In this document: positions 11,325 to 11,534 of the stretch, one piece after another
Position numbering within the stretch: position 1 is the first letter of the stretch
Layout of the letters: the number at the start of each line of letters is the position of its first letter
The notes under the pieces: generated by a model
Told to the model about the DNA's origin: nothing
Database searches by the model: none
The model's input: only the letters and a program-made list of their open reading frames with translations
Translations under genes and position numbers: made by a program
From: Patescibacteria group bacterium
Lineage (GTDB): Bacteria; Patescibacteriota; Minisyncoccia; Moranbacterales; UBA2206
DNA length: 64,000 bases
Assembly (NCBI GenBank): GCA_030837625.1
Contig: JAUPKF010000002.1
Location: 168 to 64,167, forward strand
Reading direction: 5' to 3'

Positions 11325-11396
11325 GCGGCATTTCGGGCAGGGAACCAGTGACAGCCCGAATGTGAATCGAGCGCTCTAATTTATCCCCCCACCAAT
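11325..11396 (-). pseudogene. degenerate tRNA-Val(CAC)-like 3' portion (outer copy) adjacent to the intact tRNA-Val(CAC)
   Basis: reverse complement ggggggataaattagagcgctcgattcacattcgggctgtcactggttccctgcccga has an anticodon arm ctcga/ttCACat/tcggg but a degraded T-arm and acceptor; it parallels the intact outer copy at 28078-28150. Confidence 0.45.
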
Positions 11397-11400
11397 TGGG

Positions 11401-11474
11401 TGGGTATTACTGGACTCGAACCAGTGACCTCACGGATGTGAACCGTGCGCTCTAACCAACTGAGCTAAACACCC
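11401..11474 (-). tRNA. tRNA-Val(CAC)
   Basis: acceptor gggtgtt/aataccc, anticodon stem cacgg/ccgtg with loop ttCACat, T-loop ttcgagt; flanked by the inverted repeat ccccccaccaattgggtg / cacccaattggtgggggg. Confidence 0.85.
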
Positions 11475-11534
11475 AATTGGTGGGGGGACGAGCTGAGCTA
11501 ATCGTCCAATAAATAGTACTGACACTTTTGATTG

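Follow-up and report, generated by a model that had tools for sequence, protein, structure and literature searches.

The window analyzed here is a stretch of 64,000 nucleotides (nt) from a Patescibacteria group bacterium (GenBank assembly GCA_030837625.1, contig JAUPKF010000002.1, positions 168 to 64,167); all coordinates below count from its first letter. It contains two intact tRNA-Val genes that each lie within the D loop of a second, interrupted tRNA-Val gene. The Val(CAC) nest (11226-11507, minus strand) is named locus 1 and the Val(GAC) nest (27956-28140, plus strand) locus 2. Both loci share one architecture, which belongs to a Patescibacteria-wide family of nests; the sequences that bracket the inner tRNA occur in both orientations and in an empty form, and they are present in some genomes and absent from close relatives. 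We think it probable that a palindromic mobile DNA element carrying a central, co-oriented cognate tRNA gene splits the D loop of a resident tRNA-Val gene and replaces its function, and that the outer gene is left as a decaying shell.

Results

A complete tRNA-Val gene within the D loop of another at locus 1

The inner gene of locus 1, an intact tRNA-Val(CAC) at 11401-11474 (minus strand), is called both by ARAGORN and by the Rfam model RF00005 (70 bits, threshold 29). It is held in a 112-nt cassette with complementary arms, and the cassette sits in the D loop of an outer tRNA-Val(CAC) gene that spans 11226-11507 on the minus strand in three pieces separated by two inserts. Piece 1 (11491-11507) consists of the acceptor 5' strand, U8 A9, the D-stem 5' strand and the first four D-loop bases (GGACGATTAGCTCAGCT). 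It is followed by the 5' arm of the cassette (11475-11490), which forms an exact inverted repeat with the 3' arm and pairs with it in the minimum-free-energy fold, by the inner gene, which is presumed to be the working gene and ends in ACCC with no encoded CCA, and by the 3' arm with its tail (11379-11400). Piece 2 (11342-11378) provides the D-stem 3' strand, the anticodon arm (CAC), the variable loop, the T-stem 5' strand and the T-loop TTC. A 99-nt palindromic repeat element (11243-11341, minus strand), whose ends are common to other copies in the window, then separates C56 from G57 of the T loop, and piece 3 (11226-11242) completes the gene with the remainder of the T loop, the T-stem 3' strand, the acceptor 3' strand and A73 (GAGTCCAGTATCGTCCA). 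When both inserts are removed, the joined pieces are called by ARAGORN at default settings as a 71-nt tRNA-Val(CAC) with a perfect cloverleaf; 7/7 acceptor pairs (GGACGAT/ATCGTCC), 4/4 D-stem pairs and 5/5 T-stem pairs are kept across the two inserts.

An earlier note on this DNA, made from the sequence alone, had described the tRNA-Val(CAC) gene at 11401-11474 as bracketed by an inverted repeat and by outer tRNA fragments, and ARAGORN, Rfam and alignment bear this out. It had further taken the outer 3' fragment to end in the terminus of a repeat element, which was wrong in detail: ctgcccgaaatgc is the first arm of the 99-nt element in the T loop. The outer sequence reads ...ACTGGTTC, is followed by that element, and resumes as GAGTCCAGTATCGTCCA (11242-11226), and the outer gene at locus 1 is not truncated.

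Locus 2 carries a nearly identical cassette

At locus 2, the inner tRNA-Val(GAC) at 27989-28062 (plus strand) is likewise called by ARAGORN and RF00005 (70.6 bits, threshold 29). The outer tRNA-Val(GAC) spans 27956-28140 on the plus strand and is split by a single 112-nt cassette at 27973-28084 (5' arm 27973-27988, inner gene, 3' arm and tail 28063-28084); with the cassette removed, ARAGORN calls Val(gac). Its acceptor stem (GGGTCTG/CACGCCC) contains one C-C mismatch and one G-U pair. Both cassettes are built of a 16-nt 5' arm (CGTCCCCCCACCAATT), the tRNA, and a 22-nt 3' arm with tail (CCCAATTGGTGGGGGGATAAAT). The 15-mer CCCCCCACCAATTGG has exactly four copies in the whole window, namely the two arms of each locus; with up to three mismatches allowed there are 5 window matches against 1.44 expected, a number reached by 0/100 shuffles.

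When 11300-11530 (reverse complement) and 27940-28160 are aligned, the two loci agree from the outer TAGCTCAGCT, across the entire cassette, up to the outer AGAGCGCT, except in the inner anticodon arm (9/17 positions), at one inner D-loop base, and at one base before the outer AGAGC. In this comparison, which the earlier note had proposed, the shared flanks reach well beyond the inverted repeat rather than being confined to it. Gene conversion would explain why the two cassettes are identical save for the anticodon arm, and their near-identity suggests recent spread or conversion between the loci, in which the two anticodon arms would have stayed different.

At both loci, the inner acceptor (GGGTGTT/AATACCC) and T stem differ from those of the outer gene at almost all positions. 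The outer anticodon is the same as the inner one, CAC at locus 1 and GAC at locus 2. As expected of functional tRNAs, the inner genes at both loci have a contiguous cloverleaf scoring above the Rfam threshold, a Val anticodon and A73. A contiguous cloverleaf with a G18 G19 D loop is found for the outer gene at neither locus, and the D loop that remains after cassette removal is 6 nt long at both (AGCTTA or AGCTCA) and lacks G18 G19. In single-strand folds, the inner cloverleaf is placed at the tip of a predicted helix of ~20 pairs, formed by the bracket arms and flanking bases, that extends from the outer D stem; at locus 1 the cassette arms pair around the inner cloverleaf in the minimum-free-energy fold with z = -5.2, and the value for locus 2 is -6.5.

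The window contains 11 intact tRNA genes (ARAGORN, Rfam) and a twelfth, a tRNA-Met with a group I intron, that was read from the Rfam intron match and flanking sequence. Remnants of an outer gene are present at all three Val genes of the window, and no such fragments were found at its other tRNAs. The third Val gene, an intact tRNA-Val(TAC) at 476-549, has directly upstream a 5' shell of tRNA-Val(TAC) (566-634, minus strand) comprising the acceptor 5' strand, the D arm with a 12-bp D-loop hairpin, and the anticodon-stem 5' strand; it has no 3' shell.

Transcription context of the nests

A promoter-like site (TTGACT, 17 nt, TAGTAT; 27915-27943, plus strand) lies 13 nt upstream of the outer gene of locus 2, beyond the terminator-like hairpin of the preceding gene (27893-27909), and no such site was seen in the stretch that separates the inner tRNA from the outer 5' piece at this locus. 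Locus 1 belongs to a run of tRNA-Ala(GGC), nested Val(CAC), Ala(CGC) and Arg(CCT) that is preceded by a promoter-like site at 11636-11664 (minus strand). Since the promoter-like sites found all precede an outer gene or the tRNA run that includes locus 1, the inner genes are presumably transcribed within the outer transcript. The inner tRNAs have no encoded CCA, and a gene for a CCA-adding enzyme is present at 7520-9259.

A family of nested tRNA genes in Patescibacteria

One genome per species was scanned for two D-arm motifs (TAGCTCAG) separated by 15-35 nt, of which the second had to run on into a normal D arm. The scan yielded 112 genome loci (cited by handles such as L023), ~30 of which show the same nest. 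The assemblies carry the labels Moraniibacteriota, Uhrbacteria, Falkowbacteria, Saccharibacteria, Parcubacteria, WWE3 or 'Patescibacteria group', or are unclassified or doubtfully labeled bins. L014, L032, L036, L050, L061, L083, L021, L033, L074, L096 and L106 were deposited as 'uncultured Bdellovibrionales', 'Gammaproteobacteria' or 'Planctomycetales' and yet have Patescibacteria-type nests; L032, from a 'Bdellovibrionales' bin, is ~95% identical over the locus to a Moraniibacteriota contig, so the deposited names look unreliable. The cargo tRNAs are mostly Val (CAC, GAC, TAC), with Met, Thr, Ala(CGC) and Pro(CGG) also represented. Nests can be stacked up to three levels deep (L023, L026, L014, L038 and L064 are multi-level).

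The common bracket reads ...TAGCTCAG-YC-TTGCCC(C)-helix / tRNA / helix-GGG(G)TGAAGT-TAGAGC..., and the ends of the D-loop element, 5'-CTTGCCC...GGGTGAAG-3', are conserved across ~25 loci, with arms of 13-19 bp. The corresponding ends of the window variant are CGTCCCCCC and GGGGGGATAAAT. The window bracket (CGTCCC... / ...GGGATAAAT) is nearest to those of one Moraniibacteriota assembly (L009, L026) that has the gene order of the window and an FtsH gene with ~74% nucleotide identity to the one here. Across 16 distinct sequences, anchored on the C and G runs, the first 12 pairs of the bracket helix are 100% paired, a percentage that is partly circular in that the loci were chosen for having a repeat; the diversity of the helix is not circular, with 9/12 pairs changing on both sides (62 cells). 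No shuffle reached its covariation score, and slid controls pair at 45-56%. Among all 211 tRNAs of the fetched loci, inverted repeats of at least 12 bp between leader and trailer occur in nests only, ordinary tRNAs having 11 bp or fewer; within the bacterial group that has the nests, the length distribution is bimodal. We therefore rejected leader/trailer pairing as a general trait of tRNA genes in the phylum: repeats at ordinary tRNAs of the same loci measure only 4-10 bp.

Shells or nests were also seen for tRNA-Arg(CCT) (L075, ~3096-3300, a 3' shell with a T-loop hairpin), for tRNA-Ala(CGC) in an anticodon-loop nest (L053, 617-689, complementary strand) and for tRNA-Pro(CGG) (L109, 4756-4827, complementary strand). 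In Acidobacteriaceae (L007, L015, L048, L052), the scan picked up tandem partial duplications of 5' tRNA-gene parts that have no brackets and look like a different phenomenon; a truncated tRNA unit is repeated several times in L007. A metagenome scan with the window bracket (CCCCCCACCAATTGGGTG) gave 13 matches, all due to chance and with no tRNA nearby. In viral contigs, the generic D-arm pattern gave 2 matches, neither of them a nest, and two junction motifs gave 67, all due to chance, with no sign of phages carrying nests.

The bracket occurs in both orientations, empty, and as an insertion relative to close relatives

In the anticodon-loop nests (L023, L038, L053, L064), the ends read 5'-TTCACCCC...GGGGCAAG-3', the exact reverse complement of the D-loop type. 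Helix variants are common to the two orientations (CCCCGTTAAAT in L038 and L103, CCCGCCCAAA in L064 and L067), and the cargo tRNA is in sense orientation in both kinds of nest. The occurrence of one bracket in two orientations speaks for an element at the DNA level and shows that bracket and cargo can be separated. For the same reason, we rejected a role of the conserved bracket ends as a signal for RNA processing. A bracket empty of any tRNA was found in a T loop (L091).

Two pairs of relatives differ by the presence of an element. L032 and L023 are ~95% identical. In L032, the locus consists of an outer shell and an intact inner tRNA-Val(TAC); in L023, the same gene contains TTCACCCCGCACCAAATGG, a new tRNA-Val(TAC) and CAGGTGATTTGGTGCGGGGCAGG in its anticodon loop, and a further copy of this cassette occupies the anticodon loop of the outermost shell. 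Two base pairs distinguish the new cargo from its host gene. L036 and L061 differ cleanly by a palindromic element that one has and the other lacks; it sits in the outer T loop between C56 and G57, as at locus 1. Conserved inverted-repeat ends, several copies in both orientations, and presence/absence among relatives (L032/L023, L036/L061), three marks of a palindromic or miniature inverted-repeat mobile element, are found in this family. A separate difference between L032 and L023 concerns the tRNA-Phe gene that follows the nested Val; in L032 its anticodon loop is broken after GGACTG by sequence that L023 lacks, which may be another intron or insert polymorphism.

Turnover of the cassettes and decay of the outer genes

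At the Val(GAC) locus, comparison of the window with L089 (74% nucleotide identity in the FtsH gene) shows an outer 3' half that is identical at 55/55 positions, inner genes that agree at 61/74, and different brackets. The Val(CAC) locus shares its flanking tRNA genes with L075 and L093, and here too the outers are more alike than the inners. A tRNA type that is nested in one genome may be the outer gene of a nest elsewhere, as seen for GGACTCG in L043 and L103 and for GGGTCTG in L089/L075 and the outer 5' piece of locus 2. Shell decay is evident in the outer genes of L050, L069, L075, L083 and L026, whose acceptor strands are mismatched or missing, and ~10 outer genes contain extra hairpin inserts.

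The outer gene of locus 2 combines a 5' acceptor strand (GGGTCTG) of the L089 inner type with a 3' strand (CACGCCC) of the L089 outer type. Locus 2 therefore looks like a collapsed triple nest. The two anticodon arms of L089 are identical, which would allow deletion by recombination, and such a collapse would explain the C-C mismatch.

Inner and outer genes match in anticodon

Outer anticodons were read by splicing out the inserts and re-running ARAGORN, with hand parsing where extra inserts are present. The inner anticodon equals the outer in 22/24 readable nests and in 18/19 Val-in-Val nests. One exception, L033, has an outer AAC and an inner TAC, one substitution apart; the other, L031, in which a Val gene lies within a putative Lys-like gene that has no bracket and an irregular outer anticodon arm, was left as ambiguous. 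In 6 nests the two anticodon arms agree throughout (17/17), and in 3 others, one of which is locus 2, a single compensated pair sets them apart; in L072 the inner and outer genes are the same from the D stem to the T loop and differ in the acceptor strands. The proposal of the earlier note that the identity of inner and outer anticodons is not coincidental is supported by the 22/24 count, and its proposal that the two copies co-evolve is supported, in the form of sequence exchange, by the six identical anticodon arms and L072. Its further view that random insertion is not involved holds in part: the anticodon match is non-random, but the events themselves have the look of insertions, and the match would stem from selection for a cognate replacement and from gene conversion at a later stage.

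A second palindromic element family in the window

The element in the outer T loop of locus 1 belongs to a family with six copies in the window, on both strands. The ends of the 99-nt T-loop element, CCTGCCCGAAATGC and ATTTCG..GCAGGCGGG, are common to the five other copies, of which three are intergenic (18866-18972, plus strand; 24809-24917, minus strand; 39533-39641, plus strand) and two lie in a coding gene (13311-13415 and 14253-14357, both plus strand). The three intergenic copies are ~107-109 nt long, with conserved ends (ACCTGCCCGAAATGCTTCGA ... GCATTTCGAAGCAGGCGGGCGAA) and interiors that cannot be aligned. A search with one repeat element at permissive thresholds returned no Rfam family. 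The copies within the coding gene sit exactly at the centers of TGTTCCA|CGTGGAACA palindromes, a placement that suggests targeting of hairpin tips.

The interrupted coding gene, 12993-15083 (plus strand), is a 696-amino-acid frame resembling O-antigen ligase (Wzy_C). Its two 105-nt element copies are in frame and translate as VPPARYASKFHA(D/N)S...EGT(L/M)SQLHSEAGGRGT. A 16-nt perfect palindrome, TGTTCCACGTGGAACA (read VPRGT), occurs at 13621-14504 and 17436-17451 in 4 exact copies and 2 with two mismatches, against 0.02 expected; two more copies are split exactly at the center by the 105-nt element, so that palindromes are nested in palindromes. An NYN-domain nuclease gene (39024-39521, plus strand) stops 12 nt before a copy of the palindromic element.

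Two further small genes of the window encode a member of the '23S rRNA intervening sequence protein' family (53465-53863, plus strand) and a PD-(D/E)XK nuclease of the PDDEXK_3 family (57869-58270, plus strand).

Discussion

Probable insertion of a tRNA-bearing element into cognate tRNA genes

The sequence of events that we favor would begin with the insertion of an element, at the DNA level, into a part of a tRNA gene that codes for a loop, that is, a hairpin tip. Insertion would destroy the host gene as a contiguous tRNA. The cargo tRNA would be transcribed from the promoter of its host, freed by RNase P and 3' processing, and supplied with CCA by the enzyme encoded at 7520-9259, and would then take over the role of the host gene. 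In the small genomes of these bacteria, where tRNA genes are presumed to be mostly single-copy, only those insertions that bring a cognate replacement would survive, which would account for the anticodon match. Parts of the sequence would be homogenized by gene conversion, both among nests and within a nest, where the inner and outer segments form direct repeats. The outer shells would then decay: locus 1 would have gained the second palindromic element in its T loop, and locus 2 would be a chimera from a collapsed deeper nest.

Several observations weigh against this account. No transposase or other mobilizing gene was recognized among the ~30 reading frames of the window that were scanned with Pfam and NCBIfam; the sole recombinase among them (28502-29491) is XerC/D-like and scores below the equivalog cut-offs. 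No consistent direct repeat, as would mark a target-site duplication, surrounds the cassette or the T-loop element; some classes of element produce none. The window's own loci provide no comparison of filled and empty sites, as no close relative was found; an exact-protein look-up for the gene beside locus 2 gave only a 1.2-kb contig. Some outer genes are as conserved as working tRNAs (55/55 against L089) and keep perfect stems across two or three inserts, which could mean that they are still used. Cassettes that differ exactly in the anticodon arm appear to need additional steps of gene conversion or selection, and the arrival of a tRNA at the center of a palindrome is left unexplained.

Alternative explanations

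The conservation of the outer genes could instead indicate that they are functional and that the cassette acts like an intervening sequence. The inner tRNA would be cut out by RNase P and 3' processing, and the outer halves, held together by the 13-17 bp bracket helix, the D stem and the acceptor stem, would be paired or ligated, so that one precursor yields two tRNAs. This is unlikely in our judgment, although it would account for the calling of both window outers as tRNA-Val once their inserts are removed, for the complete set of stem pairs at locus 1, for the identity of the locus 2 outer 3' half to L089 despite an FtsH gene at 74%, and for the outer pieces of L036 and L061, which differ at 1/~70 positions compared with 4/29 in the unpaired spacer. 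The 6-nt D loop without G18 G19, the C-C acceptor mismatch at locus 2 and the mismatched or missing halves in many relatives do not fit a working tRNA, and the presence of the bracket in both orientations means that its conserved ends are not one RNA signal.

Nor do the junctions resemble a known intron. The archaeal bulge-helix-bulge motif places a 4-bp helix between two 3-nt bulges where exon meets intron. An intron of this type was rejected, as no staggered 3-4-3 arrangement could be drawn by hand on the predicted folds at the junctions, which have a 4-bp D stem, an internal loop with several bases unpaired on either strand (~5 x 6 nt in one fold), and then ~20 uninterrupted predicted pairs. 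Ribozyme, intron and small-RNA families were searched at locus 1 with Rfam at permissive thresholds, and only tRNAs matched. The group I intron core RF00028 had no match in 11000-11700 at E values up to 10, and at the gathering threshold its only match in the whole window is 28188-28394. No splicing endonuclease or ligase was seen among the window reading frames scanned (64 kb of the genome), and we know of no established tRNA ligation pathway of this kind in bacteria. A related proposal, in which the cassettes are a protein-independent tRNA intervening sequence from which RNase P and RNase Z free the inner tRNA while the clamped outer halves work split or re-ligated, strikes us as quite unlikely; if true, it would provide the first split tRNA in Bacteria.

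The earlier note had proposed that the nests arose by templated duplication. A resident tRNA would be copied into a hairpin in its own D loop, for instance by template switching at a palindrome, and the two copies would later diverge or be kept alike by gene conversion. Individual nests look as this would predict: inner and outer genes are identical throughout in L012, the new cargo in L023 is only two base pairs away from its host, and the anticodon arms are identical or one compensated pair apart in the nests listed above, locus 2 among them. For the window loci, however, such an origin is not supported. Inner and outer genes there differ at nearly all acceptor and T-stem positions, orthologous loci in relatives keep the outer gene while inner gene and bracket differ, and a tRNA type that is inner in one genome is outer in another. 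The same bracket variants, moreover, occupy both D loops and anticodon loops and occur in either orientation, and even the cargo of L023 is not an exact copy of its host. The comparison of L023 with L032 shows the entry of a bracketed tRNA into a cognate gene that had been intact. We therefore regard templated duplication as improbable.

Chance resemblance or an assembly artifact can be dismissed, given the 112 nt shared by the two window loci, the ~30 independent assemblies, and the shuffle and slide controls.

Relation to known systems

Full-text literature searches found no description of a tRNA gene nested in a tRNA gene, within incomplete journal coverage that leaves room for an earlier one. 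Palindromic selfish DNA is already known; the tRNA passenger and the use of a cognate tRNA gene as target are the new part. Elements that encode a tyrosine integrase target tRNA genes and restore the disrupted end, but they are kilobases long, insert close to the 3' part of the gene and copy no more than a portion of it. Like them, the elements of the nests target a tRNA gene and bring in sequence that preserves tRNA function; unlike them, they are tiny, have no integrase and put a whole tRNA gene into a loop.

A parallel in behavior, compared here by description, is with the palindromic elements of Rickettsia and with bacterial miniature inverted-repeat elements. Rickettsia bellii has 526 palindromic elements, of which 53 lie within coding genes and one lies within the gene for tmRNA (PMC1458961). 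In both systems, ~100-nt palindromic, non-coding selfish DNA resides in a small genome and is inserted in frame in protein genes and also in RNA genes; in the window, this is paralleled by the two in-frame 105-nt copies in 12993-15083, the three intergenic copies and the one in a tRNA T loop. Unlike the Rickettsia elements, one branch here carries a central tRNA gene, sits in a cognate tRNA gene and stacks in multi-level nests. Dada DNA transposons of fish also target tRNA genes (PMC8869645). They are eukaryotic, encode a transposase and escape selection through multicopy genes, whereas the elements described here are bacterial, measure ~40 nt when their cargo is not counted, and seem to evade selection because they supply a replacement tRNA.

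Archaeal non-canonical introns and split or permuted tRNAs likewise involve interruptions of the D, anticodon and T loops, sometimes several per gene, with helices across the junction. The nests differ from them in lacking a bulge-helix-bulge, in having a bacterial host, in containing a complete tRNA inside the insert, and in the two orientations of the bracket. Group I introns occur in tRNA genes of Patescibacteria (PMC13011429), and thus in the same phylum and the same class of target. One lies next to locus 2: tRNA-Met(CAT) at 28166-28458 (plus strand), directly downstream, has a group I intron in its anticodon loop (RF00028, 71 bits, 28188-28394) that is absent from the orthologous tRNA-Met of L089. 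The cassette, in contrast, has no catalytic core, is only 112 nt long, and is placed in the D loop.

The nests are a trap for annotation, as gene finders report the inner gene only and miss the shells, the fragments and the in-frame element copies. They also provide a natural test case for split tRNAs or extended D loops in bacteria, and the shells, on the favored reading, would record in datable form how active the elements have been in organisms that are not yet cultivable. If the insertion of tRNA-bearing palindromic elements is the correct explanation, selfish DNA would have a new way to enter essential single-copy genes without killing its host, and core translation genes a new route for horizontal exchange or replacement. 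The tRNA genes of Patescibacteria would then turn over by serial replacement, each round leaving its mark in layered fossil shells.

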